The notes under the pieces: generated by a model | The model's database searches: none | The model's input: the letters and a program-made list of their open reading frames with translations, nothing else | Told to the model about the DNA's origin: nothing | Program-made: the position numbers and the translations under genes | Sequence record: MK573636 | Source of the DNA: Escherichia phage vB_EcoM_PHB13 | DNA: 64,000 nt | Reading direction: 5' to 3' (one strand) | Shown: positions 649 to 63,811 of the stretch, piece by piece | How the letters are laid out: each line of letters starts with the position of its first letter | How positions within the stretch are numbered: position 1 is the stretch's first letter

Positions 649-683
649 TTGACATGATGAAACGGGAGTAGTAAGATACTCCC
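649..683 (+). promoter_or_regulatory. sigma70-like early promoter (TTGACA / TAAGAT) with inverted repeat GGGAGTA-gtaaga-TACTCCC in spacer/-10 (promoter-early stem-loop type)
   Basis: read directly; identical 27-nt core recurs near 44181 and 44462. Confidence 0.5.
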
Positions 684-708
684 ATTTAAACAACTAGAGG
701 ATTATATT

Positions 709-1887
709 ATGGCTAAATTCTTTGAAGGTCATTACTATGCATTCCGTGAAGGTGGTAAAGATGAGTTTCTAGACTTTTCTCGCTATTCAATTATTCTGAC
801 CGATGCTTCGCGCCGTGGTCATATTCGGGTTGCTGAAATCGTCGAAAAGGGCTTTAAAGTATTAGAAAAAGATGACAACGGTCATGTTATTACTATTGAA
901 GCTGGAGATGTAGTTTATTCCGCTGAGGATATCGTTTATTATTGGGCTACTATGATTATGCACGATGAGCGTAAATACTTTAAACGCATCTCAAAAGAGG
1001 CATACGAAGCGATGAACAAGAAAGAGGATGCAATGCCGACTTACTTTGAAAAAGGTAAATGTTATTCGTTTACACCAGAAGGTTTGCAAGAATTTAAGCG
1101 ATTCTGGGGAGAGCATGATCCAGATCACAAAGAAGCTATGAAACTTGTTGATTTTGTCGAATATGGCTTTTTAGTTGAAGAAGAATTGCACGGATCAGCT
1201 ACCATGATCACCGCGAAAGGTGAAACTGTTAAGGCAGATCGTTTTTGTGATCAATGGGCTTGTGTGTTTGATGGTGGCGAATTTGAATACTTCGCGGAAA
1301 TCACGAAACAACAATTTCATTCTATGCAAGCGGATGGTCAGAGATTTAAAGTAGGTGAACGCTACAAGCCAAATCAGCATAATTTGCCATATTGGTTTAC
1401 CGCTGAAACTGTATCAAGTCATGTTGTTGAAATTGTTCAAAAGCTGGGACAAGGATTTAAGGTGACTAAAGTAGATGATTATGGAAGTGTTGACGCGGTT
1501 GAAATTGATGGTGTAGAATATACACCGAAATCTTTCGGGCTTTGCTGGTATCACTTGATCAGCAATGATGAACGTTATAACTTTGTTGAACTGCCATCTG
1601 AACCGGAAGAAGCACTAGAAGATCATGATCATCTGTCTGAACTGGTTAAACTGTTTGGTGATCTGCCGGATGGTGTAGGCGTGGCGGTAATGGGTGAAGG
1701 TACTGTTATTCGCAACCTGAAAGACCTTAAAAAGTTCTTGATTGACATGCTGCCTAAACTTGATGATAATCTCGATAAAGATATTCAGAATCGCAAAGAA
1801 ATTGTTAAAGATACTGAAAAAGAGATCGAAGAGATTCGAGCAATTCGCCAGAAGGTGAAAGCAGTAAAGAAAAAAGTTAGTGCTTGA
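709..1887 (+). CDS. hypothetical protein, three tandem copies of the family beta-domain plus helical C-terminus
   Basis: ORF track; internal repeats ending DERKYFKRIS / EFEYFAEIT / ERYNFVEL. Confidence 0.6.
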   Translation: MAKFFEGHYYAFREGGKDEFLDFSRYSIILTDASRRGHIRVAEIVEKGFKVLEKDDNGHVITIEAGDVVYSAEDIVYYWATMIMHDERKYFKRISKEAYEAMNKKEDAMPTYFEKGKCYSFTPEGLQEFKRFWGEHDPDHKEAMKLVDFVEYGFLVEEELHGSATMITAKGETVKADRFCDQWACVFDGGEFEYFAEITKQQFHSMQADGQRFKVGERYKPNQHNLPYWFTAETVSSHVVEIVQKLGQGFKVTKVDDYGSVDAVEIDGVEYTPKSFGLCWYHLISNDERYNFVELPSEPEEALEDHDHLSELVKLFGDLPDGVGVAVMGEGTVIRNLKDLKKFLIDMLPKLDDNLDKDIQNRKEIVKDTEKEIEEIRAIRQKVKAVKKKVSA

Positions 1888-1917
1888 CATGCGAAGGGAG
1901 TATGCTATAATACTCCC
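1884..1917 (+). promoter_or_regulatory. early promoter TTGACA-16bp-TATAAT with stem-loop GGGAGTA...TACTCCC
   Basis: read directly. Confidence 0.5.
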
Positions 1918-1941
1918 ACTTAACAACGAGAGGATTATATT

Positions 1942-2436
1942 ATGTGGGTACAAGATGTTTGGTATACTGTAACTAAAGAAAACCTTGACGCATTCAGCGA
2001 CCAATCTTGCGCTAATAGCTCAATTGCTGGTATACTTACTGATGTGTTTGGTGGTGTAGATAAAATTCGTTTTAAAGTTGTTGTTAGTTCGCTGGGTCAG
2101 GTGAAAGATCTTTACACCGAAGATAAAGACCTTGATCTTGAACTTCGTCTTCGTATTGATAATGCAAGTCTAGGTTATTGGTTTGAAGATAACGAATATG
2201 AATACTTCACACCAGCAATTAAAGTTTTTGCGACTAAACTGGAAGCTGTACTGAATCTACGACCAATTAATGTTGACGGCTACATTATCAAAAATATTCA
2301 GGATTGGGAGTTGTATCTAGATCAGGTTATCCGAAATAGTAAGCAGGAAGCCGCTAATAAGAAGCGACAAGAGATTAAACAGCTTAAAGCTGAACTGGAA
2401 GCGGCGGAAAAAGAATTAGCAGAACTGGTAAAATAA
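1942..2436 (+). CDS. hypothetical protein with family-like motif (EYEYFTPAIK) and coiled-coil C-terminus
   Basis: ORF track; SD GAGGATTATATT. Confidence 0.5.
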   Translation: MWVQDVWYTVTKENLDAFSDQSCANSSIAGILTDVFGGVDKIRFKVVVSSLGQVKDLYTEDKDLDLELRLRIDNASLGYWFEDNEYEYFTPAIKVFATKLEAVLNLRPINVDGYIIKNIQDWELYLDQVIRNSKQEAANKKRQEIKQLKAELEAAEKELAELVK

Positions 2437-2444
2437 CTATCAAC

Positions 2445-2468
2445 GAGCGGGAGAAATCCCGCTTTTTC
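2445..2468 (+). terminator. intrinsic terminator-like hairpin AGCGGGA-gaaa-TCCCGCT plus T-run
   Basis: read directly. Confidence 0.45.
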
Positions 2469-2480
2469 ATAGGTGATACA

Positions 2481-6262: not shown

Positions 6263-6790
6263 ATGGAATGGGAAGTTGGTAAAACTTACAAGATTGAATG
6301 CGAAGCGTCGAAAGCCGAACTGACTAAATTTTCGTCGTCTATTAACAGATGTATTGTTGACTTGTTGGCTGGTCGCCCGTTTAGGGTAGAAGACCTTGAC
6401 GATGATGGTGATGTTAGAGAAATTACTATTATTGGTAGTAATTTCGACTCTATGACGTTAAAAGAATCCCCTATTGGCTGTTCCGGTGTGTGGTTTTGGT
6501 CGGGTGAGCGTCGTTTCTTTACCGAAGTTACTATTGAACCTAAGATTCCAGATTCGGAAGAAAAAGAAGAAGACCTAACTTTAGAACGCCTGGGTCTGCT
6601 TATGGAAGCCTACGACATTCAGTTGATCGATAAGATGGGGTTACATAATAGCATTGCCAAAATTACTACCCTAGAAGGTATTAAGAGCGTGCTTGATGGT
6701 ATGCCTAGCCGGATCGGTGCTATCCGAGAATACAAGCAAACGCGCGACCGTATGATCCAATTAGAATCACGTATCAAAAATGAGAGATGA
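6263..6790 (+). CDS. hypothetical protein, repeat-domain family (MEWEVGKTY... / ERRFFTEV)
   Basis: ORF track 6254..6790, start moved to ATG. Confidence 0.55.
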   Translation: MEWEVGKTYKIECEASKAELTKFSSSINRCIVDLLAGRPFRVEDLDDDGDVREITIIGSNFDSMTLKESPIGCSGVWFWSGERRFFTEVTIEPKIPDSEEKEEDLTLERLGLLMEAYDIQLIDKMGLHNSIAKITTLEGIKSVLDGMPSRIGAIREYKQTRDRMIQLESRIKNER

Positions 6791-6794
6791 TATT

Positions 6795-7259
6795 ATGAAA
6801 TGGGAAGCTGGTAAGACCTATGCGTGGAAAGATGTAAAAGATGCAAACCAATTTTTTAAATGGTATGATGTTGATTATTTGAAATATCTGAGATTACCGT
6901 TTAAAGTTGCGTCGGTTGATGCGAAAAAAGGATACGTGCGGTCTGTTTATCTTCATGATGGAACTTATATGAGTTCAACCGATGTAGGTCTATCTTGTTG
7001 GTTTCTGGATCATGACCGTAGCAGATTTGAAGAAATTATTATTCCAGAAGAATCTAAATTAATTGATCTTCTCAAGTTGGCGATGGATAATTATAAAATC
7101 CGCTTTGAATGCAAATCACATGCGGCTATCGGTGCTAACGCCTTGCGTCATATCTCCAGTTTTGAAGAGTTGAAAGATTTTCTTGACAAAATGCCGGAAA
7201 GGGTGCAAGCTATACAGGAAGCAGAGAAAGCATTAAACGAACTTGATAAAATCGGTTAA
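6795..7259 (+). CDS. hypothetical protein, repeat-domain family (MKWEAGKTYAWKD...)
   Basis: ORF track 6780..7259, start moved to ATG after SD. Confidence 0.55.
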   Translation: MKWEAGKTYAWKDVKDANQFFKWYDVDYLKYLRLPFKVASVDAKKGYVRSVYLHDGTYMSSTDVGLSCWFLDHDRSRFEEIIIPEESKLIDLLKLAMDNYKIRFECKSHAAIGANALRHISSFEELKDFLDKMPERVQAIQEAEKALNELDKIG

Positions 7260-7271
7260 GGGGAATATATT

Positions 7272-8096
7272 ATGAAATGGGAAATTGGTAAAACTTACAC
7301 CTGGAAAGACGAAAACGCTAAAACTGAGTTTATTACTAACGGAGAAGGTGTTCTTTCTCCACTTAACAGCGATATTAGTGCAGCTATTGGTGACAAGCCA
7401 TTTACCATCATCGAGATCGAGGGTAACGGTTGGATTGATGCAATAGAGCTAGACGGTGTTTATCATACGGCGAAAACTGCTACAGGAAAAGACATTTGGA
7501 AGTCAACATATTTGTTTAGTCCATTTGATAGAAAATTCTTTCGTGAAGTTGAAGAAGTTCCCCAGAAATGGGAAGTTGGTAAAACTTATACTTGGAAAGA
7601 TATTAAGGCTATGACCGACTTCTGTCATTATGCCGAAAACGTATCTAACCTTAATTATGTTATTGCACGAGCAATAAATTATAGACCTTTTACTGTTAAA
7701 AATGTTCGTCCATGTGGGCAAATTGATGTAATTGAAATTGATGGTAAAGACCATACTCTAATGAGCGCAACCGAAGATAGAGACCATAAAGGAACTAGCT
7801 GGTTTATTGATTCTGATAGAAAATTCTTTCGTGAAGTAGAAGAATTGGAAGTTATAACCACTGATTCTAAGATCGTTGGACAGTTGAAACGTCTGTTTAG
7901 TAGTCGTTACGGCCTGACAATGGTTAAATTTGGCGAAGCAAATGAAGGTAAAACCTTTGAACGTTTCGATGATTTCATTTCGGCACTTGACAAGATGGAT
8001 GAAATCATGCAAGATCGCCAGAAGATTAAAGACCTTCAAGAAGACATTAAACGTCGTGAAGTTGAATTTTTGATTGGTAAAGAGCGAGGATGGTAA
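7272..8096 (+). CDS. hypothetical protein, repeat-domain family with two tandem domain copies (WEIGKTYTWKD ... DRKFFREVEE, twice)
   Basis: ORF track; about 23-nt identical DNA repeat near 7528 and 7812. Confidence 0.6.
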   Translation: MKWEIGKTYTWKDENAKTEFITNGEGVLSPLNSDISAAIGDKPFTIIEIEGNGWIDAIELDGVYHTAKTATGKDIWKSTYLFSPFDRKFFREVEEVPQKWEVGKTYTWKDIKAMTDFCHYAENVSNLNYVIARAINYRPFTVKNVRPCGQIDVIEIDGKDHTLMSATEDRDHKGTSWFIDSDRKFFREVEELEVITTDSKIVGQLKRLFSSRYGLTMVKFGEANEGKTFERFDDFISALDKMDEIMQDRQKIKDLQEDIKRREVEFLIGKERGW

Positions 8097-8097
8097 T

Positions 8098-8583
8098 ATG
8101 TTTGTTGCTGGCGTGACCTATCAGTGGAAAGATAAGAAAACGAGAGAAGATTTTGCAAACTTTAGCGTTGCAAATGATGCAATAGCAGAGTTTATCGGCG
8201 ACCGTCCATTTAAAGTTATTGCATTTGATCACCACCATGCATCGGATGTGAATTATGTTTCTGTGATTGAAATTGATGGCACGGTATACACCTGCTGCAA
8301 TGTTGATGATGTACGGGAATACGCGCACAACTGGTTTTTGCAATCAGAAGAACGTCATTTTAAAGTGGTATCGGCAGAGCTATCATCCGAAGCAATGTTG
8401 GAACAATTTTTCAACAACTACGAAGTTTCTGTACGTCGCTATGGCGAAGAAGAAGTGTTTAAAATCGATGATTACAATCAGTTTAAACGAGTATTCGCCA
8501 CTAAGTTACAGCGTGATTTTGAACGCGAGAAGCGCATCAAGGAACTGGAAGAAGAATTGGAAAGATTAAAGGCTGAGAAATGA
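8098..8583 (+). CDS. hypothetical protein, repeat-domain family (GVTYQWKDKK ... ERHFKVV), coiled-coil C-terminus
   Basis: ORF track 8074..8583, start moved to ATG after SD GAGGATGG. Confidence 0.55.
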   Translation: MFVAGVTYQWKDKKTREDFANFSVANDAIAEFIGDRPFKVIAFDHHHASDVNYVSVIEIDGTVYTCCNVDDVREYAHNWFLQSEERHFKVVSAELSSEAMLEQFFNNYEVSVRRYGEEEVFKIDDYNQFKRVFATKLQRDFEREKRIKELEEELERLKAEK

Positions 8584-8997: not shown

Positions 8998-9018
8998 TTC
9001 TTGAGTGAGGAATATATT

Positions 9019-9306
9019 ATGTTAGTACACAATGCAATCGCACACATGGTTTATTCTCGATTTGGGCGCAGGGAAGAAATCAATATTACCGACGCAGATT
9101 TAGATCTGATGCAAGTAGAAGGTCAGACATATCTGAAAAATAACGGCGTGAATATCGGTAAAGCGCGTGTGCGTGAATTGTTGGTTGAATATATTCTCTC
9201 TGAATTTGGCATTAGTGCTTTCGGTGTGAAAGAGCTTGCACCTAAGCGCGAAATTTCTGATAAAATGATCAAGAAATGCCAGAAAGCACGACGTAAGGGT
9301 TTCTAA
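9019..9306 (+). CDS. hypothetical protein
   Basis: ORF track 9001..9306; ATG after SD GAGGAATATATT. Confidence 0.45.
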   Translation: MLVHNAIAHMVYSRFGRREEINITDADLDLMQVEGQTYLKNNGVNIGKARVRELLVEYILSEFGISAFGVKELAPKREISDKMIKKCQKARRKGF

Positions 9307-11855: not shown

Positions 11856-11945
11856 TGGCTTTATAAGGGAGACTCCGAAAGGGGTTTCCCTTTTTATTTT
11901 TCTGTGATATAGTGAGAGCATCGAAAACGAAGAGAGGAAGAGACT

Positions 11946-13272: not shown

Positions 13273-13590
13273 ATGAAAACACTTGCACAAAAAGTAGTAG
13301 AATTTAATGCAGCTTTGCCTATGTTTGCTCGACGTAAGGGGATCTCCGTTGATGTATGGTATTCTAAAGAGCATGAAGAAGTTCGGATGATGGTCGAAAA
13401 GCGACTCACCGATACTACTGTTAAGTGTAAGATTCGCTCTATTCCTCGCGCGGAAATAGAATTTGATGAAAGCTATTACTTTACGCTGCGTCATGTGCTG
13501 AAACAAGCAGTGGATGAACTTTTAGAAGACCTGAAACAATATGAGATTGAACGAGGAACATATTATGAATACGACTATGGTCGCGGCTGA
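13273..13590 (+). CDS. hypothetical protein
   Basis: in-frame ATG within track ORF 13222..13590. Confidence 0.4.
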   Translation: MKTLAQKVVEFNAALPMFARRKGISVDVWYSKEHEEVRMMVEKRLTDTTVKCKIRSIPRAEIEFDESYYFTLRHVLKQAVDELLEDLKQYEIERGTYYEYDYGRG

Positions 13591-19818: not shown

Positions 19819-19850
19819 GAGTGTCTTTCGTAAGTGAAGGAGTTTATATT

Positions 19851-22529
19851 ATGTATTTTCTGTCATGTGAGCGAGTAGGTGATAAGATCTACGAGCGTTA
19901 TATTGATGATGCTGGACAAGAACAAGAGCGTTACGTTGAATATACGCCAACTTTATTTCATCATGCCGCGCCTGGTATGGTTACGAATTATAAAGATATC
20001 TATGGCAAGCCTTGCATTGCTAAAAAATTCCCCTCTATGAACGAGGCCAACAAATGGCGTAAAAAGATGGGGGAGATGGGGCAAGAGGCACTAGGGATGG
20101 ATGATTTTATCATCTCCTATCTGTCTGATACGTATAAAGGCGAGATTCGATATGACCGAAATAAAATCCGTGTAGCATGGGTTGATATCGAGGTCACTGC
20201 CCCAGAATTTCCTAAACCAGAAGAAGCGAAATATCCTATCGATGCAATTACGCATTATGATTCCGTACATGATCGTTTCTTTGTATTTGATTTGAAAGGA
20301 AAAAACGGTGAATCTTGGGAAGCAAGCAAGTCTATTCTTCGCCCAGATATTGTAGAACGTGTTGTTTATAACGTCTATGACACAGAAGATGAATTGCTGT
20401 TAGAATACATCCGATTCTTTGAGGAAAACCGACCCGTTGGTTTCACTGGCTGGAACACAGAAACATTCGATATTCCATATATCATTAAACGTATCAGTAA
20501 TAAGTTCGGAAGTAGAACCGCTAACCGTCTAAGCCCGTGCGGTAAGATTAAATCCCGAATCTCACAGGATGATTTTGGCAACGAGCGTGAAGCATTTACG
20601 ATCATGGGGATCGAAAGCCTTGATTATATTGACCTGTACAAGAAATTTAGCTTTACGACTCAACCAACATATGCATTAGATTATGTTGCTGAATACGAGA
20701 CAGGAATCGGTAAGGTTGATTATGATGGTCCGTTAAAGAAATTGCGTGATGACAACCATCAACTTTACATCGATTATAACATCGGCGACGTTGATCGTGT
20801 GCTGGCGATTGATAAAAAGCGTGGATTTATCGATCTGGTGTATAGCCTATGTTTCTATGCAAAGATTAAATTTAACCATGTTTATAACCCGATGAAAGTA
20901 TGGGATGCTATTATCTTCGGATCTCTGAAAGCTGAGGGTAAAGTAGTACCGGAAAATAAGATACAACCTAAGCAGACGTATCCAGGCGCATTTGTAAAAG
21001 AACCTGTGCCAAATGCTTACCGTTGGATGATGAGCTTTGACTTAACAAGTTTGTACCCATCTATTATTCGACAGGTTAATATTTCGCCTGAAACAATCGC
21101 TGGATCTTTTGATGCTGCACCGATGCACGAGTATATCAATAAAACTGCACCACGTCCTAGTGATGAGTATTCTTGCTCGCCTAACGGATGGATGTATCGA
21201 AAAGATATTCATGGTATCGTACCGATTGAGATTAAAAAGGTATTCGATCAGCGTAAGCAGTACAAAAACATGATGTTGGCATGTGATCGCAATGCTGAAC
21301 TATGTAAAGCGATTCTACACGATGAAAATCATGTTTATGGGGGAACCATTAGCTATAGCGTTGAAGTGCGTCACGACTTCGATGAAGCGTTTAAATCGAT
21401 GCTTTCTGAATTAAGTAAAGACGCCTTAGAGAAATTGCTGGAAGAATGTAAAGACGAGTCGATCTTGTGCAATACAAACCAGCTTTCTCGAAAAGTTTTG
21501 ATCAACTCCCTTTATGGTGCGTTGGGGAATCCTAAATTCCGTTTTTATGATCTCCGTAACGCTAGTGCGATCACACTGTTCGGTCAGCTTGCAATTCAGT
21601 GGATTGAGCGTAAGATTAACGAATACTTAAACGAGCTTTGCGGAACAACCGATTTTGCATATGTTCGTTATTGTGATACTGACTCCGTTTATGTGCTGGT
21701 TAACAATGTTGTTGATAAGGTTGGCGGGGAAGACCGTTTCGACGATACCGAAAAACTTGTTGACTTCCTTGATAATTTCGGTAAACATCGAATGGAACCT
21801 ATTATCGACAAGGGATATCGCGAGTTATGCGAGTACATGAACAACTATGAGCACTTGATGTTTATGGACCGCGAGGCAATTGCTGGTCCTCCGTTGAAAT
21901 CTGCGGGTATCGGTGGATTCTGGACTGGTAAAAAGCGTTATGCTCTTAATGTTTGGGATATGGAAGGAACGCGCTTTGCTGAACCTAAGCTAAAAATCAT
22001 GGGCTTGGAAACGCAACGTAGCTCCACCCCGAAAGCATGTCAGAAATCACTGAAAGAATGTATTCGCCGTATGTTGCAGGAAGGTGAAGAGTCATTGCAG
22101 GAATACTACGGTATTTTTGAGCAAGAATTTAGAAAACTTGACTATCTTGATGTTGCTGCGGTATCATCTGCAAACAACCTACAGAAATACAGCGATTCAA
22201 ACGGGTATCCGATTAAGGGTTGTCCGTATGCGGTTAAGAGTGTATTGTGTTATAATCGTAATGCTCGAAAATTCGGACTAGATCCGATTCGTGAAGGCGA
22301 GAAGGTTATGATTGTACCGCTGAAAGATCGAAATCCGTTTGGAGAAATCTGTTTTGGTTGGTTGTCCGGTACTCGTATTCCTCCAGAGATTGAAAGCGAG
22401 GTGTTAAAGTGGTTAGACTGGTCTTTGTTGTTTAATAAGACTTTCGTCAAACCACTGGAGAACATTACAACGGCTGCAAAGCTGCAATATGAAAAAGTGG
22501 CATCTCTTACAGACCTGTTTGACATTTAA
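19851..22529 (+). CDS. 43: DNA polymerase gp43 (family B)
   Basis: exo motif VDIEV, SLYPSIIRQVNISPET, polymerase motif CDTDSVYV; T4 gp43-like; start at ATG 19851. Confidence 0.95.
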   Translation: MYFLSCERVGDKIYERYIDDAGQEQERYVEYTPTLFHHAAPGMVTNYKDIYGKPCIAKKFPSMNEANKWRKKMGEMGQEALGMDDFIISYLSDTYKGEIRYDRNKIRVAWVDIEVTAPEFPKPEEAKYPIDAITHYDSVHDRFFVFDLKGKNGESWEASKSILRPDIVERVVYNVYDTEDELLLEYIRFFEENRPVGFTGWNTETFDIPYIIKRISNKFGSRTANRLSPCGKIKSRISQDDFGNEREAFTIMGIESLDYIDLYKKFSFTTQPTYALDYVAEYETGIGKVDYDGPLKKLRDDNHQLYIDYNIGDVDRVLAIDKKRGFIDLVYSLCFYAKIKFNHVYNPMKVWDAIIFGSLKAEGKVVPENKIQPKQTYPGAFVKEPVPNAYRWMMSFDLTSLYPSIIRQVNISPETIAGSFDAAPMHEYINKTAPRPSDEYSCSPNGWMYRKDIHGIVPIEIKKVFDQRKQYKNMMLACDRNAELCKAILHDENHVYGGTISYSVEVRHDFDEAFKSMLSELSKDALEKLLEECKDESILCNTNQLSRKVLINSLYGALGNPKFRFYDLRNASAITLFGQLAIQWIERKINEYLNELCGTTDFAYVRYCDTDSVYVLVNNVVDKVGGEDRFDDTEKLVDFLDNFGKHRMEPIIDKGYRELCEYMNNYEHLMFMDREAIAGPPLKSAGIGGFWTGKKRYALNVWDMEGTRFAEPKLKIMGLETQRSSTPKACQKSLKECIRRMLQEGEESLQEYYGIFEQEFRKLDYLDVAAVSSANNLQKYSDSNGYPIKGCPYAVKSVLCYNRNARKFGLDPIREGEKVMIVPLKDRNPFGEICFGWLSGTRIPPEIESEVLKWLDWSLLFNKTFVKPLENITTAAKLQYEKVASLTDLFDI

Positions 22530-22572: not shown

Positions 22573-22590
22573 CAATGTGAGAAATATATT

Positions 22591-22779
22591 ATGAGAGACA
22601 TTGAAAAGATTAAACGTGAACGTGAGGAAGGCATAGAGCATTTCAAGAAAGTTCACGGAAATCACAGTAACGAAGTATTTGTGACGATCAATGTTGATGC
22701 GATGAAAAAGTTAATTCAAGAGCACTACAAAGATCGAATAACAATGAAGCAATTAAAGTATTACGGATTAACTGAATAG
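22591..22779 (+). CDS. hypothetical small protein
   Basis: in-frame ATG within track ORF 22552..22779 after SD GAGAAATATATT. Confidence 0.35.
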   Translation: MRDIEKIKREREEGIEHFKKVHGNHSNEVFVTINVDAMKKLIQEHYKDRITMKQLKYYGLTE

Positions 22780-23896: not shown

Positions 23897-23916
23897 TATC
23901 TAGAGAGGATTATATT

Positions 23917-24234
23917 ATGGATAAGAAACCAACAAGTTTAGAAGAAGCACACAGCTTGATTCAAGAAGCAATGAAGACAGTTATCCAGGAACTGATAATT
24001 GTTGATGAAGAGGGAGAACATCATATTGTCTATATTCATAATGTTGAATACGATCCAGACACTAAAGGTATTGTGGTCGACTACTCCACGCCGTCAGATC
24101 GTGATGTGGTATATCCACACGTCATTAAGGCGTTAACCGCGCAGATCAAAGAAGCAGAAGAAAAGTTGAAAAAAGAAACTTTCTGGTATAAACTCAAGAC
24201 CTTTGTTATGCGTGTAGTTGGGGGCTATGTATGA
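23917..24234 (+). CDS. hypothetical protein (occupies the T4 gene 40 position)
   Basis: ORF track; position only. Confidence 0.35.
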   Translation: MDKKPTSLEEAHSLIQEAMKTVIQELIIVDEEGEHHIVYIHNVEYDPDTKGIVVDYSTPSDRDVVYPHVIKALTAQIKEAEEKLKKETFWYKLKTFVMRVVGGYV

Positions 24235-26329: not shown

Positions 26330-26359
26330 TCTATAATGAAACTCTAAGGAGACTATATT

Positions 26360-26734
26360 ATGAAAAATATGATTACGCCGGAAGATGTAGCATTTAAAAC
26401 CGCAAATAACGGAGACATTCTTATTTTTATCGACGGTAAACATGCTGGTATGGTTGAACCGGAAGGACGCTGGGGAGTCGCCGAACTTTATGATGTGGCT
26501 GGTGTAGATCCGAAAACTGCAATTGTTTTTCTGGCGGATAAAGATCAAATGCGTCGAAAAATTGCTGCGCTCTATAATGAAGCATTGTATTTCTACGAAC
26601 CGTTTCATCGTATTAAAACGATCTCCCGCGTGACTCGAAAAGATGTTAATGCTTGTGTTATCAAGATTGTAGAGAATCAGGATAAACTGACGAAAGACCA
26701 GATTGTTGACTTACTGAAAGAGATTATTCTATGA
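26360..26734 (+). CDS. hypothetical protein
   Basis: ORF track; SD GGAGACTATATT. Confidence 0.45.
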   Translation: MKNMITPEDVAFKTANNGDILIFIDGKHAGMVEPEGRWGVAELYDVAGVDPKTAIVFLADKDQMRRKIAALYNEALYFYEPFHRIKTISRVTRKDVNACVIKIVENQDKLTKDQIVDLLKEIIL

Positions 26735-29434: not shown

Positions 29435-29463
29435 ACACACATACCAACTAAGGAGAATCAATT

Positions 29464-30219
29464 ATGAAACTGTTTGCTTTTAAATCTAACGAAGAATTGG
29501 CGCTGGTTGTTTTCCGTCTGAACTCTATCATGGCTGGTGCTTCACGTCGCAACAAAGACTTCTCTATGAGCTTAGTCACTGTGCGTAACATTTACCGACA
29601 GACTCATTGCGCCTATTCCGGTGAGGCTTTCGGTGAAGGTGATGATGGACTCTCCTTAGAGCGCATTGATTGCAATCTGGGATATGTTGATGGCAATGTA
29701 ATTCCGGTTAAACTGAAATACAATTCTTTCCGTGGCAATCACACTATCGAATCTCTTAAAGAGATCCAGGAACTAGGAACTAACGGTAAACTTTCTGATG
29801 ATGAAATTGCCCTACGTGCGAAGTACATCGAGTGGATCGAACTTAACGAGAATCGCATCAAAAATCAGGAAATGGCAATCGAAGAAAAGAAATTAGCAAT
29901 CGAGCGCCATAAAAAGCACAACGAACCGGAGAAAGCAGAGGCAGCCGAGCGAGCGATTAAAAATACTCTCTTCCGTATGGAAGAACGTTATCAGAAAATT
30001 GCAGATCTCAAGCAAGCCCTTAGCGAAATCAACAAGAAAGAAGAAAAACTTAAGGCTATTGCAAACAATACCGAAATCGTGCTAAAATATACCAGCGTTT
30101 TGATTGAATCTCTTTCTAAGTATGAGAACTTAACGCCAGCACAAAAAGAACGCGTGAAATACGGGCTTCCGATTGATGCGTCGTGGATTGAATTGATGAA
30201 AGCGAAGGTAGGTTTATAA
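29464..30219 (+). CDS. hypothetical protein (size and position compatible with T4 srd; not verified)
   Basis: ORF track, 251 aa. Confidence 0.4.
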   Translation: MKLFAFKSNEELALVVFRLNSIMAGASRRNKDFSMSLVTVRNIYRQTHCAYSGEAFGEGDDGLSLERIDCNLGYVDGNVIPVKLKYNSFRGNHTIESLKEIQELGTNGKLSDDEIALRAKYIEWIELNENRIKNQEMAIEEKKLAIERHKKHNEPEKAEAAERAIKNTLFRMEERYQKIADLKQALSEINKKEEKLKAIANNTEIVLKYTSVLIESLSKYENLTPAQKERVKYGLPIDASWIELMKAKVGL

Positions 30220-36935: not shown

Positions 36936-36949
36936 GTGAGGATTATATT

Positions 36950-39058
36950 ATGAAAATGCATATTGATAATGAAGAAGTATTTGGCAGTGACTTGAGCGGT
37001 GCGGTTGATTTTTCACTGAAAGCAAGTAGCAAGGCTTTTATGGTGCTTTCTAAGAACACTTATCAATATTGTGAGCGTGCTTGCGTCCGTGAGTATTCGT
37101 GCAATGCTACCGACACTCACAAAGAAGCCGGAACCTTAGATCGTCCGTTTGATATTCATTTACCGACTGCAATCGAACCGTATTTTTCTGTGCGTGATTA
37201 TGGTACTGGTATTCCGTCTAAGAAAGAATTAGAACAACTGTTTACGGTTTACTTTGAATCAACAAAAGACCAGACTAATGACTATATCGGGTCTTTTGGT
37301 TTGGGTGCGAAGTCTGCTTATAGCTATACCGACACCTTTACAATCGTAAACTATTACAATGGTCGCGCTTATGGCTTTACGGCATTTGTGCAAAACTCTA
37401 TGCCGAAAATGGTGCAGATTTTCGACGAACCGACCTATGAAGACAATGGTCTGAAAATCACTATTCCGGTGAAAGAAAAAGATATTAAAACATGGCATCG
37501 AGAAGCACAATTTGTACTGCGTCATTTTGGGGAACATAAACCGAATATCAACGCAATCGAAATTAACTATTTCCCTAGCTTTGATAATTATTATGTGTGT
37601 AATGGGCGTGATAACGATTCCTACGTGGTATATGCAATCATGGGTAAGATCCAGTATCCAATCCCGTATGAATATATTCGCGGAACATGGTTAGAAGCTG
37701 TAAACCGCCAGCACCAGACCATTTACATTAATTTTGAGTTGGGTGATCTGGACCTGATGCCATCGCGTGAAGAAGTTCACTTGTCAATTGAGACTAAAGC
37801 GAACATCGAAAAACGTATTGCAGAAATCAATGAAATGATGTTGGAAAAGGTTAAAGAAAAGATCGCCAGCATTGAAACAGAGCGTAAACTTGCTCAATTT
37901 ATGAGCGAGTATTCATCGACTCAACGCAATATTATTGGCAAGATGGGTAAGATCGGACAATGGGATGATCCGGTAGCAATCTATAATAAGTTTGTGAATG
38001 CTGGCAAAGATTCACCCAATGACGTAGAAGGACAGGTGTATACTCTGTATCATACTCGTCACACAATCAGTAAATTGCGCCCTGCTTTCGTTAGCAGTCA
38101 ATACAACATTACGCATTTTGTATGGATGCATAAAGAAGATATTACGTGTCTTATTGATGATACCGATAAACCGAAACTGCGTGCACTGACTCTTAACGGC
38201 ATGGTCCAGGAATACGGCATCAATAAAAAGGTGCTGGTGTTCCGTCAGAACAACGAAAAACATATGGAGACTTTCGAGTACATCAAACAGTATTATGATG
38301 ATTCTGAAATGACCGTGATTAAGGTATCAGAGGCCGATGATCTTCGTGCTAAAGCAATTAAGCCGGAGAAGACCGAGCGTACACAACGTGAATCAACTCC
38401 TAAGCTGCCTAACGTGTATATCATGGAAAAGATTGGTGACAGTTGGCATAAAACCAGCCATCATATGAAAGCGGCAGAGATTCGCGAGTTATCAGGCTTG
38501 CACATGTTCCGCGTGGGTGATGCATTCGAAAGCCGTAGCCGTCAATCGATCTATAATGAAAATACATTACACACGGCGCTTGACTACTTCGGGGTAACAA
38601 AGTATATTATTACCCGTAACGAGACACAAAAATATCTCGTTGACGAACAATTGGAATGTGCGCTAGAATTTGTTCGCGGTAAGCTGGCTGGTCTGGCTAA
38701 GAAGGTTAAGACCAATCATCTGGGGTATGGCGAATATCTGGGTGTGATCACTATGTTGTTTCATGACGATGAACTAGAACGCTGTGTTCCAGAATTTATT
38801 GACAGACTGTACGGTCGTCATTATAATAAAGAGGTTTCCAAGTTACTCCTTCGTACTCGTTGGATTATGGACGAAGAAACTAAAAAGATCTGTGATGAAA
38901 AATTCACGGCAGCAAACGAACGAATTAAAGCAGTTTGTGCGAAGTTTAAAGAGAATAGCCCGTTACTGTATGATATTGTAGATAACTGGTATCGTATTCT
39001 GCATAACGACAAACGCGCACAAGACTTTATGAAACTGGTTAAGAATGTTAAATTTTAA
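36950..39058 (+). CDS. rIIA: rIIA protein (GHKL ATPase-like N-terminus)
   Basis: 702 aa, motif DYGTGIP / GSFGLGAKSAY; synteny 39-rIIA-rIIB. Confidence 0.8.
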   Translation: MKMHIDNEEVFGSDLSGAVDFSLKASSKAFMVLSKNTYQYCERACVREYSCNATDTHKEAGTLDRPFDIHLPTAIEPYFSVRDYGTGIPSKKELEQLFTVYFESTKDQTNDYIGSFGLGAKSAYSYTDTFTIVNYYNGRAYGFTAFVQNSMPKMVQIFDEPTYEDNGLKITIPVKEKDIKTWHREAQFVLRHFGEHKPNINAIEINYFPSFDNYYVCNGRDNDSYVVYAIMGKIQYPIPYEYIRGTWLEAVNRQHQTIYINFELGDLDLMPSREEVHLSIETKANIEKRIAEINEMMLEKVKEKIASIETERKLAQFMSEYSSTQRNIIGKMGKIGQWDDPVAIYNKFVNAGKDSPNDVEGQVYTLYHTRHTISKLRPAFVSSQYNITHFVWMHKEDITCLIDDTDKPKLRALTLNGMVQEYGINKKVLVFRQNNEKHMETFEYIKQYYDDSEMTVIKVSEADDLRAKAIKPEKTERTQRESTPKLPNVYIMEKIGDSWHKTSHHMKAAEIRELSGLHMFRVGDAFESRSRQSIYNENTLHTALDYFGVTKYIITRNETQKYLVDEQLECALEFVRGKLAGLAKKVKTNHLGYGEYLGVITMLFHDDELERCVPEFIDRLYGRHYNKEVSKLLLRTRWIMDEETKKICDEKFTAANERIKAVCAKFKENSPLLYDIVDNWYRILHNDKRAQDFMKLVKNVKF

Positions 39059-43351: not shown

Positions 43352-43382
43352 ACACCCATACCAAACAAAAGGAGAATCAAAG

Positions 43383-43655
43383 ATGTGCAACGAAAACAGC
43401 AAAGTGTTGGCAATTGCAGATAAAGTAGGTTACTGGAAATGCTGGGATGATATGGAGAAATTAGGCGGTCGCTATCTCGATAACTTAGAGTTGCATTATT
43501 GCCAAGCGCGTAATGCAGAAGTTGCGGGAGTAGCAATCGAAGATATTCCGTCTAAAGTCTTCGGATTCTCTAAAGATGATACTCTAGAGTATGTTTTTAA
43601 GGCTGTAATGGATCAAGCATGGGAAGACGCAGAGACACGCGCTCTTGATTGGTGA
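43383..43655 (+). CDS. hypothetical protein
   Basis: in-frame ATG within track ORF 43320..43655 after SD AGGAGAATCA. Confidence 0.4.
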   Translation: MCNENSKVLAIADKVGYWKCWDDMEKLGGRYLDNLELHYCQARNAEVAGVAIEDIPSKVFGFSKDDTLEYVFKAVMDQAWEDAETRALDW

Positions 43656-43918: not shown

Positions 43919-44161
43919 ATGGTTAAAGTTAATGTTATCGAAGTTGCACTGTACGACGCTGGAATCTTCCTGAATGAAAAAGAAGCTGCCGTGCTCGATG
44001 AACTGAAAACTGTTTTTGTTCCTGTAGTAGAAGACGTTGAAGCAATTAAAATCGCTTCTCGTAAACTGTCTCGCGAAGCATTCGACATGATTGATCCGGT
44101 TTTCAAAGTTATGCACGAATGCGCGGTTATGATGACCGAAGAAGAAGCGAAAAATTTCTAA
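43919..44161 (+). CDS. hypothetical acidic protein
   Basis: in-frame ATG within track ORF 43856..44161 after SD GGAGG. Confidence 0.4.
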   Translation: MVKVNVIEVALYDAGIFLNEKEAAVLDELKTVFVPVVEDVEAIKIASRKLSREAFDMIDPVFKVMHECAVMMTEEEAKNF

Positions 44162-44168: not shown

Positions 44169-44203
44169 TTGACGTAAAGAAACGGGAGTAGTAAGATACT
44201 CCC
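44169..44203 (+). promoter_or_regulatory. early promoter TTGACG with stem-loop GGGAGTA-gtaaga-TACTCCC (same core as 649..683)
   Basis: read directly. Confidence 0.5.
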
Positions 44204-44226
44204 ATACCAAACGAAAGGAGAATCAC

Positions 44227-44439
44227 ATGAAATCTATCGAGCAAGTAGTAACAGAGTTTATGAGCTACGAAGGAAACCGCATCTTTGGACGTTCTCAAGT
44301 TCGCGAGATCGTGGAAGAGGTCTCTGGAGAGTTTGCGGAATCTGGTCACGTTATCACGCAAGAACGTAAAGAAGAAGCAGTAAACCAGATCATGGCTATG
44401 CAGAAAATGCGTATTAATGCACGAGCGGGTAAAAATTAA
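44227..44439 (+). CDS. hypothetical protein
   Basis: ORF track, 70 aa. Confidence 0.4.
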   Translation: MKSIEQVVTEFMSYEGNRIFGRSQVREIVEEVSGEFAESGHVITQERKEEAVNQIMAMQKMRINARAGKN

Positions 44440-44446
44440 AAAGTAG

Positions 44447-45591: not shown

Positions 45592-45614
45592 GTTGTTGAC
45601 GTGAGGATTATATT

Positions 45615-45806
45615 ATGGTAATTTTTAATCGCGATGGTATCATAGTTCGGCAACACCCATTCCTTGAATACTATCAGGTTGAACAATGGGGATATGGGGA
45701 TTGTTCTCGATCATACGGTCAAAGCTGGGGATACCGTACAGTTTTTGAATCAACCGATATTGACAAAGTACGACAGAAAGTTTTAGAACTTCTTAACGAT
45801 AAGTGA
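45615..45806 (+). CDS. hypothetical protein
   Basis: ORF track; SD GAGGATTATATT. Confidence 0.4.
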   Translation: MVIFNRDGIIVRQHPFLEYYQVEQWGYGDCSRSYGQSWGYRTVFESTDIDKVRQKVLELLNDK

Positions 45807-51547: not shown

Positions 51548-53038
51548 TTAGAAAGTACCAAAATCAATCACCGCATTAAGTGGAACTGCGCCAACATCAG
51601 CCGGAGTAGGTTTATTGCCTTCATGATAAAGCTGATAGCGGTCCACGGTTTGAGTATTGTTTCTAGAACGGAAAAACACGACCTTTGAGTCGTGGGTGAT
51701 CCCCAGCTTTTCGGTCCCTTTAATATCACTAATACGGTGAATCATAGCAGTACCATCAGCACCGCTTAACGCCGCATAACAGTTATCCCCGTTATAGTTA
51801 GTTTTAGCTGTTCTAACACCGTTTGCAGCCGGAACAGTTAACGGTCCTGTCATGGTATCGCCAGTTACGTTAACATAGCGAATATCGGCTAATTTACGGT
51901 GATCTACATAGTTCCATGCAGTCCATGATTCATTAGAACACGAACGCCAGCACATCGGATGATCAATAGATTCAGGATAATACACCTGAACAATTCGACG
52001 AGTACCGACCGCATCTTCTGGGCGATATACCATCAAAACGCCGTTATAATAACTATCAGACGGTTTATTAGTACCCGACCCAGCATTTTCCACACGATAG
52101 ATACCGCGATTAATAAGAGTGTTCCAATCAACGTTTCCAATGATGGTTGGATTTGCTACCATTGATTTTCTCTCAAAGTAGCTCAAACGAACCAATTCAT
52201 TAGGACCAGCAGGATCGTTTGTCGCCAACATTCTAGGCGCTTGCAAGTTACCTTCCATAATATCACCAGCACGTTTAACCTGTGCATCATTGGTGACATT
52301 GCCTAGCCCAACATCGGCTTTAGTTGGTTTATTGTTGGTGTGATAAAAACGACCTTCTCTGCCATTAACAAAAATGGTAGGCTCATCTTTACTTCGGAAT
52401 ACCAACGTATCAAGAACGTTACCATAATAGATCTTAGTCGCATCAAAATTAATTAAATCACGTTCCCTTGCAATTAATTTCGAATCAACCGATAGTTTAA
52501 CAGTGACAGTGTTTAAATTATATGTTCCTGTGAGAGTATCACCGCGACGAGACACCAAATCTAAATCATTATTCGTTGGTTTATTAACAGGGCTATAGAC
52601 GCGTTGACCTGTGTCTTTAATGGTTGTCCCTTCGATAGTCCCTTTAGACTTAAATTCGCCCGTTGTGGTGTCAATATACGCCATAATAACGCCATCACGG
52701 GCATTAACAAAGCCGATTGACTTCCATGAATGCAAACCCCAGCTTACGCCGTCAAAATTAGCGGCATCACTCTGGCCTTTAAAGATACCATTCTTTTTGG
52801 TTTCTCCAGCCGATGCGCTACCTACGCTTAAACCTTCCTCGAAATGAACTTGCTTTTGAAATGTGCCACCTTCGGATGCACTAACAGCATCAAAATCGGT
52901 AGCCGAAGGTCTATCAAAAGCGGTATAGATTTTATGACCTTTGTAGAAAAGCTGGTCCCCCGCTGGCTGGATCGTCAAGTTTCCTTGCGTCCAAATGGGA
53001 GATCCGCCTACAGTAGATCCATATTTCAAATCTGCCAT
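51548..53038 (-). CDS. 36: long tail fibre subunit gp36
   Basis: N-terminus MADLKYGSTVGGSPIWTQGN resembles T4 gp36; candidate late promoter TATAAATA upstream. Confidence 0.6.
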   Translation of the reverse strand: MADLKYGSTVGGSPIWTQGNLTIQPAGDQLFYKGHKIYTAFDRPSATDFDAVSASEGGTFQKQVHFEEGLSVGSASAGETKKNGIFKGQSDAANFDGVSWGLHSWKSIGFVNARDGVIMAYIDTTTGEFKSKGTIEGTTIKDTGQRVYSPVNKPTNNDLDLVSRRGDTLTGTYNLNTVTVKLSVDSKLIARERDLINFDATKIYYGNVLDTLVFRSKDEPTIFVNGREGRFYHTNNKPTKADVGLGNVTNDAQVKRAGDIMEGNLQAPRMLATNDPAGPNELVRLSYFERKSMVANPTIIGNVDWNTLINRGIYRVENAGSGTNKPSDSYYNGVLMVYRPEDAVGTRRIVQVYYPESIDHPMCWRSCSNESWTAWNYVDHRKLADIRYVNVTGDTMTGPLTVPAANGVRTAKTNYNGDNCYAALSGADGTAMIHRISDIKGTEKLGITHDSKVVFFRSRNNTQTVDRYQLYHEGNKPTPADVGAVPLNAVIDFGTF

Positions 53039-58209: not shown

Positions 58210-58774
58210 GTGGCAAAAACAAAATTTTGGGATATCGAGACACAGAAAGCGATAAAAGGTAGATTTTATCATGTTGATGGAATATTATACCATTTAAAGG
58301 ATTCTGTATCTGCTGGATTCCGAAAAGAAGGGTCCAGATACAAAAAAAGGTGATGTGGTAAGGGTACGTCTCCATAAAGAAGGATATTTATACTTTACAT
58401 TTTATAACAATGGTCATAAACTTAATCTGTTTGTACATAGAGTTGTCTGGTTTTTAGAGTATGGTACTCAGGTTGAACTAATAGATCACATAGACCAAGA
58501 CAAAACTAACAATAGACCGTCAAACATGAGAGAAGCAACAGAACAGCAAAATCAGTTTAACGTCTCAAAGAAAAAGGCTTGCCATAGCAAATATAAAGGT
58601 GTATCATTATCAACAAGCAAGAAAAAGCCGTGGAAGGCGTATATTGTTATCAATCGAAAGAATATACATCTAGGATACTTTGAGACAGAAGTTGAGGCGG
58701 CTAAGGCTTATGACCGTGCAGCACATGAAAGAGTTGGCGAGTATGCTTATTTAAATTTTCCAAAAAGAGGATGA
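58210..58774 (+). pseudogene. HNH-AP2 homing endonuclease split by frameshift at an A7 tract (N-terminal fragment about 58210..58353, HNH+AP2 portion 58355..58774)
   Basis: HNH motif HRVVWFL...IDHIDQDKTNNRPSNMRE and AP2-like YKGVS...WKAYI...GYFETEVEAAKAYD; removing one A near 58342-58348 joins the frames. Confidence 0.5.
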
Positions 58775-58780
58775 TATATT

Positions 58781-58966
58781 ATGGTTAAAGTTGATTTGTC
58801 AGAAGGTGCAAAATGGGTAGTTGACAGAATCCCTGATAAGGATTATAATTATTTCCGTGCCGAATTAAACAATGCAATTCTGCGAGTTATGGAAAAGTAC
58901 GGGTATGACCGTGAAGTATCTAACTCGTTTGGTGAATATGTTGTTGTGAGAGTGGAGAGAACTTAA
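58781..58966 (+). CDS. hypothetical protein
   Basis: ORF track, 61 aa. Confidence 0.35.
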   Translation: MVKVDLSEGAKWVVDRIPDKDYNYFRAELNNAILRVMEKYGYDREVSNSFGEYVVVRVERT

Positions 58967-61801: not shown

Positions 61802-62770
61802 ATGTTTAAACGCCAAGATTCTTCCAAACTGCAAGCTCAACTGGCCGCACTGAAAGGTGGCAACGGTTTCTCCAAAGAAGATCCGAAAGAGTGGAAGATT
61901 AAGACTGATGCAGCAGGTAACGGTGAAGCCCTGATTCGCTTCCTGCCGTCTAAGACAGAAGACGGTCTGCCGATTGTGAAACTGGTAAACCATTCCTTCA
62001 AAGTTAATGGCAAATGGTATTGGGAAAACTGCTCCAGCACCCACGGTGATTTTGATTCTTGCCCTGTGTGCAAATATATTAACGAAAAAGACCTGTACAA
62101 TACCGATAAAACAGAATGGCAACTGATTAAGCGTAAAGCGTCTTACTACGCAAATATTCTGGTACTGAAAGATCCTCAAGCACCAGAAAATGAAGGTAAG
62201 GTATTCAAATTCCGCTTCGGTCAGAAAATTTATGATAAGATCGTTGCAATGGTGAACGTGAATACCGATATGGGCGAAGTTCCGGTCGATGTAACTTGTG
62301 TGTTCTCTGGTGCTAACTTCCTCCTGAAAGCTAAGAAGGTTGATAAACACCAGAACTATGATGATTCTCGTTTCATGCAGCAATCACAGCTTCCGAAAAT
62401 TGAAGACGAAGCATATCAGAAATATCTGATGGAAAACATGGTTGATCTGAGTGAGATTGTAGCGCCTAGCCAGTTTAAACCGTTCGATGAACTGGAAACC
62501 AAATTTAAGAAAACTATGGGCGTTTCTATGGTAGCTGGTGCTGCGGCTTCCAGTGCTGCGGCAGCGATTAACAGCCAGCTTGACGATTTTGACGCACAGA
62601 TGAATGCATTCGATTCTGGTATGACCGCAGCTAGCACTGTAGTTGGTATTAACGCAGCTAGCACGGCGTTAGATTCTTCCGCTGATGACCTGATGGCATC
62701 GCTGGATCTGGGTGGCGGTACTTCCTCCGCTTCTGATCTGGATGATCTCGACGCTCTGTTAGGGATGTAA
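61802..62770 (+). CDS. 32: single-stranded DNA-binding protein gp32
   Basis: strong similarity to T4 gp32 (VIRFLPSK, zinc site [24 protein letters not shown]); start at ATG 61802. Confidence 0.9.
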
Positions 62771-62780
62771 TGAATTTTAA

Positions 62781-62808
62781 AGCCTTCCTTCGGGGAGGCT
62801 TTTTTATT
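62781..62808 (+). terminator. intrinsic terminator AGCCTTCC-ttcg-GGGAGGCT plus T6
   Basis: read directly. Confidence 0.5.
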
Positions 62809-62834
62809 ACCTAAATTTTTATGAAAAAATATAT

Positions 62835-62862
62835 TGACATGCTGGCGCGGTAATGTATAATA
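62835..62862 (+). promoter_or_regulatory. sigma70-like promoter TTGACA-17bp-TATAAT
   Basis: read directly. Confidence 0.45.
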
Positions 62863-62896
62863 CACACATCGAAACAACGGAGGATAATATTATATT

Positions 62897-63226
62897 ATGT
62901 GGACTGTAGAACAAATCGTAGATGAAAAAGTAAGTATTATCTCGTGCGGCACTATTGAAGAATGCCTTAAAGCCGCTAATCGTGAATGTATTACGGTTTA
63001 TGAAGCCCGTCGCGGGGATGGTACTGTGTTAACCAGCGACTATCGATATGAACCAAAAATGATTACCTTTCGTTTTTGGGAAAATGGTGTTAATGTTGGG
63101 GTATCTCACTTAAAACGTTTTCGTGATTATTCTGACCGTTATTTCATCACACCGGATAACGGTCAAGAATTTAAGACAGCAATCACAGAAGAAAATGTAA
63201 ACGAAAACTATTTCAAACTGATTTGA
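62897..63226 (+). CDS. hypothetical protein
   Basis: ORF track, 109 aa. Confidence 0.4.
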   Translation: MWTVEQIVDEKVSIISCGTIEECLKAANRECITVYEARRGDGTVLTSDYRYEPKMITFRFWENGVNVGVSHLKRFRDYSDRYFITPDNGQEFKTAITEENVNENYFKLI

Positions 63227-63241
63227 TGGGAGATTTATATT

Positions 63242-63811
63242 ATGATTCAATGTGTATTTGCGATTGGTGACACTAAAATGTCAGATGAAAATTGGGCTTT
63301 TGGTTTTAAAGGCGGTTTACCGTGGGGTCGTCCAATCAAAAAGGACATGGAAAACTTTAAAATGCGCACTATGGGAGATGTTGACCTTGCGGCGGTGGTA
63401 ATGGGACGTAATACCTTTGAAAGTCTCCCTAAAGCACTGGAAGGACGTCTTAATGTGGTTATTAGCACCGATGCCAGTAAGCCGACACCAAAAGCTAAAA
63501 ACGGCGACCAGCCTAATGTGTATACTGGAATTGAATTAAAGGATCTGTTAAAAGTCCTGGAGAAAACGCAAGGTTTGGTAAGCGTTATCGGTGGACCTTC
63601 CCTAATTGAAAAAGCAGTTGACTTTGCGGACCGTATTGTGTTAACGTATGTTCAACGTTCAGGGACCAACGATCCATTGGAATATGATGTTGGAATCTCT
63701 AAGGATATGATTCAGGAATTATTTTTTGACTTTGCAACAAAAGAAGAACATAATTACTTCCTTGATGATTACCTGATCAGCGAACAAATTTTAGAACGTA
63801 AGAAGGCGTAA
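63242..63811 (+). CDS. frd: dihydrofolate reductase
   Basis: DHFR motifs GGLPW and VMGRNTFESLP. Confidence 0.8.
   Translation: MIQCVFAIGDTKMSDENWAFGFKGGLPWGRPIKKDMENFKMRTMGDVDLAAVVMGRNTFESLPKALEGRLNVVISTDASKPTPKAKNGDQPNVYTGIELKDLLKVLEKTQGLVSVIGGPSLIEKAVDFADRIVLTYVQRSGTNDPLEYDVGISKDMIQELFFDFATKEEHNYFLDDYLISEQILERKKA

Follow-up and report, generated by a model that had tools for sequence, protein, structure and literature searches.

Why should many unrelated genes of one phage begin with almost the same ribosome-binding region? This question is raised by a stretch of 64,000 nucleotides (nt) from Escherichia phage vB_EcoM_PHB13 (sequence record MK573636), hereafter called the window. An initial annotation made from the letters alone had noticed there a recurring Shine-Dalgarno (SD) sequence with its start codon, and had suggested that it may be an operator of the translational repressor RegA or part of a mobile cassette. 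The repeat is real, statistically strong and lineage-specific. It consists of two distinct classes of initiation region, which had been merged into one: a compact motif, (G)AGGATTATATT-ATG, here called class A, and a leader with its own start-site form, here called class B. We lean towards reading class A, GAGGATTATATT-ATG, as a standardised SD region with which early-strand genes of the RB49-like phages initiate translation.

The window was compared with Escherichia phage RB49 and other Krischvirus genomes, to which it is 95-98% identical in reverse orientation (window 1-39058 corresponds to RB49 38867-1, window 39059-64000 to RB49 164018-138248), and it is a segment of the genome of a Krischvirus, i.e. 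of an RB49-like, T4-type coliphage. RB49 RefSeq proteins placed by tblastn gave 96 gene starts, to which three window-specific open reading frames (ORFs) were added. The + strand carries the early or prereplicative genes nrdD, 55, 47, 46, 45, 44, 62, regA, 43, uvsX, 41, 61, dda, 39, rIIA, rIIB, 52, 32 and frd, and the - strand carries the tail-fibre genes 34-37 and t at approximately 47.6-58.2 kb.

Motif enrichment at annotated starts, the check that the initial annotation itself had proposed, lies far above background. With up to three mismatches allowed, the 15-mer GAGGATTATATTATG has 23 matches, all on the + strand, against 3.15 expected (100 shuffles, maximum 9), and 21 of the 23 end at a start codon transferred from the annotation of RB49. 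Six copies are exact (beginning at 73, 697, 1930, 23905, 36938 and 45603), which makes it the commonest 15-mer of the window; it is also the commonest 15-mer of the complete RB49 genome, with 11 copies on the early strand and none on the late strand. The 9-mer TATATTATG (TATATT-ATG), the most frequent of the window, matches 15 times against 1.07 expected, again only on the + strand, and every match is an annotated start. The SD sequence has its G-run at -12..-9; position -3 is A (0.77), and -2 and -1 are both T. TATATT stands at -6..-1 in 15 of 93 + strand genes (16%), whereas 2.96 would be predicted from position frequencies taken independently; the best of 5000 column shuffles reached 10, and the runner-up hexamer occurs three times. 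Hence, the copies form a discrete family and not a sum of position-wise preferences. In RB49, TATATT-ATG stands at 22 of 231 early-strand starts and at none of the 46 on the late strand (Fisher p=0.03). All 14 start coordinates that had been listed are annotated starts; the exact copy at 73-87, before the beginning of the span given for the motif (683-63244), had been missed.

The probability that the repeat arose merely by chance in an AT-rich genome, or through the duplication of paralogous genes, is practically negligible. The shuffle controls rule out chance and AT-richness, the window has 40% G+C, and all TATATT-ATG copies stand on one strand at start codons. A scan of viral contigs showed the exact 15-mer in many unrelated contigs, each time as a single copy; this would suit chance but is hardly informative. 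Two small groups of distant paralogs carry the motif (85/709 and 6795/7272, ~30% amino-acid identity) and all other motif genes are unrelated, so that the earlier statement about unrelated genes sharing a near-identical ribosome-binding region is essentially correct and paralogy was rejected as the source. Moreover, with proteins only ~30% identical, descent alone cannot preserve the motif DNA.

The copies are given below by position, together with the cassettes called PeSLs to which some of them belong. PeSLs (promoter-early stem-loops) are published cassettes of RB49/phi1 (Arbiol et al., 2010, PMC2839356; Comeau et al., 2014, PMC4122927); each combines a promoter of sigma-70-like type with a G(n)-loop-C(n) stem-loop and ends, on the 3' side, in an SD sequence with ATG.

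73..87, + strand: exact class A motif GAGGATTATATTATG, start of the RB49 p059 ortholog (goF-like); internal, promoterless
646-685, + strand: PeSL with -35 at 649-654, -10 at 672-677 and stem-loop GGGAGTAGTAAGATACTCCC at 664-683
697..711, + strand: exact class A motif, frd.2/goF-like gene start; 3' end of the PeSL at 646-685
1930..1944, + strand: exact class A motif, p057 ortholog start; 3' end of a PeSL (-35 at 1884, -10 TATAAT)
7260..7274, + strand: class A variant GGGGAATATATTATG, p049 ortholog; internal
9007..9021, + strand: class A variant GAGGAATATATTATG, gene 55.2 ortholog
19839..19853, + strand: class A variant GGAGTTTATATTATG, start of gene 43 (DNA polymerase); early promoter upstream at 19790
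22579..22593, + strand: class A variant GAGAAATATATTATG, p025 ortholog; the RB49 equivalent is TATACT
23905..23919, + strand: exact class A motif, gene 40 ortholog start, 3' of a terminator-like hairpin
26348..26362, + strand: class A variant GGAGACTATATTATG, dc1 ortholog; internal
36938..36952, + strand: exact class A motif, TAAGTGAGGATTATATTATG, rIIA start, adjoining the upstream stop codon
44497..44511, + strand: class A variant GAGGAATATATTATG, p262 ortholog; 3' end of the PeSL at 44444-44483
45603..45617, + strand: exact class A motif, p260 ortholog; internal
58769..58783, + strand: class A variant GGATGATATATTATG, p247 ortholog; right junction of an HNH-gene insertion relative to RB49
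62885..62899, + strand: TATATT-ATG with hybrid spacer GGAGGATAATATTATATTATG, p239 ortholog
63230..63244, + strand: class A variant GAGATTTATATTATG, start of frd (dihydrofolate reductase); internal
13553..13567, + strand: looser relative nATATT-ATG (GAGGAACATATTATG), p036 ortholog
Ending at start codons 6795, 16308 (rpbA), 39070 and 60529 (dsbA), + strand: further looser copies

In RB49, class A stands at 22 genes, typically as (G)TGAGGATTATATTATG or AGAGGATTATATTATG before TATATT-ATG. These comprise core genes (43, rIIA, 40, dc1, 55.2, cd, frd, tk.4) as well as ORFans and show no clustering in gene order (p=0.16-0.6). Their gap to the upstream gene has a median of 21 nt, with 12 of the 22 in the range of 10-25 nt, and it is usually made up of the upstream stop codon, 1-3 nt and the motif; the other RB49 genes have a median gap of 4 nt, and 64 of 168 overlap their upstream neighbour. 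An early promoter was found within ~45 nt of 6 of the 15 class A copies in the window (709, 1942, 19851, 22591, 44509 and 62897) and at a distance of up to 60 nt at about 8 of the 22 in RB49, where about 14 are without a real one. More than half of the copies are therefore without an early promoter, internal, and placed directly 3' of an upstream stop codon. An integron-like cassette array was rejected, since class A genes are adjacent no more often than chance predicts.

By its sequence, class A qualifies as an SD region: 5-10 nt before a real start it has a run of purines complementary to the 16S rRNA 3' end. GAGG occupies -12..-9, 8 nt before ATG, and the spacer AUUAUAUU is made solely of A and U. 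In the mechanism that we propose, GAGG would pair with the 3' end of 16S rRNA, and the fixed 8-nt spacer of A and U would position AUG in the P site. Where genes do not overlap, the whole intercistronic gap of 10-25 nt would essentially be class A, right after the upstream stop, and in this gap, which is under no coding constraint, one preferred sequence may be held by purifying selection. A minority of the copies at the same time form the 3' end of a PeSL promoter/stem-loop cassette, and class A occasionally serves as the crossover point for gene insertions or deletions. We infer both that ribosomes bind there and why the copies are exactly alike; the simplest account of the latter is purifying selection on an unconstrained intercistronic start, together with some exchange by recombination.

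The comparison of window and RB49 is consistent with such constraint. At class A sites 1 of 204 nt differs at -12..-1 versus 14 of 221 at -25..-13 (p=0.0009); at the other start sites the numbers are 10 of 756 and 19 of 819. The p262 gene has kept the motif despite a protein identity of only 66%. Furthermore, homology among the copies ends 1-3 nt upstream of GAGG and at ATG, which makes the conserved unit exactly the initiation region. Intermediate relatives, as needed for a phylogenetic footprint, were not found: in both collections searched RegA identity is at least 99% (58 Krischvirus records) and then falls to 67% or less.

Four observations weigh against a merely ribosomal explanation and leave room for a sequence-specific factor. 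The exact hexamer is five times as frequent as independent positions would predict, although generic selection on ribosome-binding sites should give a degenerate A/U spacer. T4 uses the same host ribosome, but among the 86 annotated early-strand genes of its syntenic 50 kb the commonest -6..-1 hexamer occurs three times and TATATT not at all, and the information at -3..-1 is 0.15, 0.11 and 0.09 bits versus 0.65, 0.34 and 0.43 bits in the window. The predicted unpaired fraction at class A starts is no higher than at other starts (0.47 vs 0.495, p=0.48). Finally, late-strand genes are without the motif although they also need efficient translation. Two further accounts were rejected: a general property of T4-type phages, since T4 has no dominant spacer and its top 12-mer (4 copies) is the UP/-35 part of the early promoter, and selection for an unusually open start site, since class A is no more accessible than other sites. 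Canonical strong SD sites of E. coli and its phages, such as the T7 gene 10 site AAGGAGAUAUACAUAUG, likewise combine a purine-rich SD sequence, an A/U-rich spacer of 7-8 nt and AUG; the difference is that class A reuses one exact version on 10-16% of the early genes, a reuse without parallel in T4. Were class A no more than a standardised ribosome-binding site, it would still be an aid to annotation, since TATATT-ATG marks the true start in 15 of 15 cases, and it offers a strong intercistronic junction for the engineering of RB49-like therapeutic phages.

Some features of the motif and of its neighbourhood can be added here. Its reverse complement (CATAATATAATCCTC) contains a perfect sigma-70 -10 hexamer, TATAAT, and GAUUA inside the motif resembles the RNase E site RAUUW; both were set aside, since any A/U-only spacer can be expected to contain matches of this kind. 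Upstream of gene 43, at ~19818-19838, a hairpin CUUUC-GUAAGU-GAAGG overlaps the SD sequence and is presumed to be the autoregulatory operator of gp43. Its loop is GUAAGU in the window and GUAAAU in RB49, and this A-to-G change falls in loop bases reported to be important for the binding of gp43. The goF/frd.2-like family has six members (~30% identity) in two tandem groups at 85-1887 and 6263-8583, with internal duplications inside 7272-8096.

Could the sequence-specific reader be RegA, as had been suggested initially? The gene is indeed encoded in the window:

19406-19768, + strand: regA, translational repressor; product 100% identical to RB49 RegA and 65% to T4 RegA

According to this explanation, class A would be the RegA operator: RegA would occupy the unstructured A/U spacer and AUG in competition with the 30S subunit, and would silence this set of early mRNAs once the prereplicative period is over. 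The product retains all T4 RNA-binding residues (K14, T18, R21, W81 and F106). The operators of T4 RegA are A+U-rich, unstructured and overlap AUG, as in rIIB (AAAAUUAUGUAC) and gene 44 (AAAUUAUGAUU), and RB69 RegA protects the spacer between SD and AUG; class A resembles them in its A+U-rich, unstructured spacer, which ends in AUUAUG like the T4 rIIB and gene 44 operators, and in its presence on many early mRNAs. T4 rIIA and gene 44 also have an identical GAGGAAATTATGATT in common. The motif is restricted to the early strand, its ~22-31 genes come near the ~30 RegA targets reported for T4, an upstream UAA stop beside the site was proposed to aid RegA recognition, and so exact a motif would suit a protein that reads a specific sequence. 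However, the orthologs of named RegA targets (44, rIIB and dexA in T4; 44 and 45 in RB69) are without the motif in the window; this holds for 44 (GAGGTGATTAT-ATG), 45, rIIB, dexA and also for regA itself, which starts with AAAGGTGGTAAA-ATG, and rpbA has AATATT instead of TATATT. Class A also lacks the 5' poly(A) tract of the T4 operators, and since T4 RegA sites form a loose family without clear consensus, one rigid 12-mer is not what RegA biology would lead one to expect. The RNA at and 5' of AUG is A+U-rich, and its predicted accessibility is average. We therefore regard the RegA operator, judged from sequence, as plausible but unsupported, and as an unlikely explanation of class A.

The second part of the initial suggestion, a mobile cassette, leads to class B. 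It consists of a leader, CCCAUACC..AAGGAGAAUCA, and a start site of the form GGAGAATCA(A)n-ATG; the leader is conserved and C/A-rich (...CCCAT(A/C)(C/G)AAACGAAA..GGAGAATCAAA). A shared leader had already been noticed, and rightly so: CCCATACCAAACGAAAGGAGAATCA is found exactly at 44201 and with one mismatch at 43355, with 0 expected. Five copies of GGAGAATCA occur in the window, and the class B sites are the following:

44201..44229, + strand: p264 ortholog, class B leader with its initiation region, CCCATACCAAACGAAAGGAGAATCAC-ATG; the PeSL at 44166-44205 lies upstream
43355..43385, + strand: p266 ortholog, class B leader with its initiation region, CCCATACCAAACAAAAGGAGAATCAAAG-ATG; a promoter lies upstream at 43321
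29439..29466, + strand: relative of the class B leader, ACACATACCAACTAAGGAGAATCAATT-ATG, srd
Beginning at 5595 and 36462, + strand: other GGAGAATCA start sites

In RB49, class B stands at 26 genes, which are small ORFans (median product 71 aa) with a median gap of 73.5 nt to the upstream gene, and they are clustered in gene order (p=0.013). In 25 of the 26, a PeSL-type -10 box precedes the GGAGAATCA site by 29-46 nt. Class B is the short 5' untranslated region and SD sequence of PeSL-driven immediate-early ORFan transcripts, i.e. the 3' end of the PeSL, and for this class the idea of a mobile cassette holds. For class A it holds only in part, namely for the 6 of 15 and ~8 of 22 copies with a promoter, about 40%, which are PeSL 3' ends in the same genus (RB49/phi1; PMC2839356; PMC4122927); the remainder is promoterless and internal. 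An SD sequence with ATG at the 3' extremity is present, but an early promoter (TTGACA-N17-TATAAT) immediately upstream characterises class B only, and class A does not cluster in hyperplastic regions upstream of ORFans, including as it does 43, rIIA, frd, cd and 40. Promoterless copies and gaps of 10-25 nt thus rule out that class A is always part of a PeSL.

PeSL stem-loops (GGGAGTA..TACTCCC) were seen at 664-683, 1895-1915, 44184-44203 and 44462-44481, and none was seen at the internal class A copies, although no systematic stem-loop search was made. At three of these positions (664-683, 44184-44203 and 44462-44481) one and the same 20-nt stem-loop, GGGAGTAGTAAGATACTCCC, extends across the -10 box (TAAGAT) of an early promoter, so that terminator hairpin and promoter share the same bases. 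The PeSL papers do not mention a conserved spacer and their searchable text does not contain the class A 12-mers; a text search for the motif strings found no paper, and the searched text of the papers does not describe the promoter-independent class A 15-mer. The division into two classes clarifies what belongs to a PeSL, namely its leader, and what is a promoter-independent start site, each with a different distribution.

The two classes probably also have different fates. The site of T4 RegB with S1 is GGAGRAYARAA (Durand et al., 2006; PMC1702504), and GGAU is cut by RegB only with a strict A-rich tail, a rule which the mapped RB49 sites obey (PMC1702504). Class B, GGAGAAUCAAA, matches this consensus in 10 of 11 positions, with GGAG and a mismatch at one of the seven tail positions, and lies likewise in the SD region of early mRNAs; class A, GGAUUAUAUUA, has U at position 4 and mismatches at three of the seven, and fits poorly. 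By inference from this sequence rule, class B mRNAs would be RegB targets and class A mRNAs would not. It is thus possible, although we hold it only tentatively, that the start-site classes sort early mRNAs by nuclease fate: RegB/S1 would cut GGAGAAUCAAA and inactivate the PeSL-driven immediate-early ORFan mRNAs, and the class A SD (GGAUUAUAUUA, GGAUUAUAUU) would escape RegB and stay translated. RB49 encodes RegB, and the SD of regB itself, GGAUAAUAAAA, is cut by RegB according to a review. Furthermore, class B starts are the most accessible (predicted unpaired fraction 0.57, more open than other starts, p=0.003), and they belong to small ORFans just after early promoters. On the other side, regB lies outside the window (RB49 51556-51978), class B has a C at position 8, where A is preferred, and an escape from RegB needs no single exact sequence, many early starts using GGTG or GGAA. 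RB49 RegB is also said, in 2004 work by Piesiniene et al., to be divergent and to act differently on GGAG and GGAU sites, which counts against the sorting.

Krischviruses are without the MotA mode of middle transcription. A combined scheme, which we consider rather improbable, would place the timing at the post-transcriptional level with two hard-wired start classes: class B would be cut by RegB/S1, and class A (GAGGAUUAUAUUAUG) would escape and be read by RegA or another protein. Class A may then define a delayed-early regulon with DNA polymerase, rIIA, dihydrofolate reductase and dCMP deaminase, and the exactness of the 15-mer would reflect protein recognition and not ribosome binding. If a factor does read the motif, the motif would define a compact post-transcriptional regulon in a T4-type phage without middle promoters.

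The last question concerns recombination. The window differs from RB49 by six indels or replacements, of which four were compared in sequence at the junction and two through alignment end-points. The RB49 endonuclease gene p240 is absent from the window, leaving the hybrid spacer GGAGGATAATATTATATTATG (62879-62899); this joins the left half of the p240 PeSL to the initiation region of p239 itself, which puts the crossover within the spacer between SD and ATG. A window-specific HNH endonuclease ORF at 58210-58774, between gene 34 and the p247 ortholog, ends inside the class A site of p247. The HNH gene p040 of RB49 is absent as well (window 11860-11950), with the junction exactly at the gene 47 ATG (11946) and a microhomology of ATGA. 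Two more junctions, 43811-44168 and 44432-44449, lie inside PeSLs. Details of these loci may be noted in passing. The HNH ORF is 45% identical to RB49 p040 over residues 27-184, RB49 having nothing at this place; it appears split in two frames (58210..58353 and 58355..58774), pointing either to a pseudogene with a frameshift or to an error in sequencing. In the window, gene 47 is joined without interruption to the PeSL-like leader and start site which in RB49 drive p040. A PeSL-flanked ORF at 43919..44161 (within 43856-44161) occurs in the window and not in RB49, and p263 of RB49 is absent from the window with its junction (44432-44449) in the -35 region of a PeSL; both differences are typical PeSL-mediated indels. 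Upstream of gene 39, the window has an extra ORF (33298-34024) in place of 67 nt of RB49, its C-terminus being HNH/endonuclease VII-like, and the 5' end of gene 39 has diverged (protein 92.9% identical overall), as expected beside a homing endonuclease gene.

Published crossovers of PeSL mini-circles lie between SD/ATG and the -10 box, and degraded '1/2' PeSLs were described near indels (PMC2839356; PMC4122927). The crossovers in the window match this zone, and its junctions with RB49 fit PeSL-mediated shuffling without being specific for class A. One could go further and regard class A as a recombination module at the DNA level, a promoter-less 'half PeSL' homogenised by cassette shuffling and kept by exchange. 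The p240 crossover in the spacer, the HNH insertion ending at the p247 site and the p040 indel at ATG point in this direction, as does the raised divergence just upstream of class A (6.3% vs 2.3%, p=0.005). Nevertheless, class A is touched by only 2 of the 6 indel junctions and, unlike class B, it is not clustered; its copies have ~15-18 nt in common with no extended flank homology, and it stands on immobile core genes (43, rIIA, frd, cd, 40). Moreover, viable indels must respect gene borders, so that junctions at start sites may reflect survivorship bias. We thus find it quite unlikely that class A is such a module, and the standardised SD region with some exchange is the reading that we keep.

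Two minor observations concern genes apart from the motif. The p265 ortholog has an RB49-annotated TTG start at 43645, and the ATG at 43661 after GGTGA looks better. Gene 37, encoding the distal long tail fibre (48559-51477, - strand), is 82% identical to RB49 with an unalignable block at 50121-50335, and this divergent region is probably a host-range determinant.

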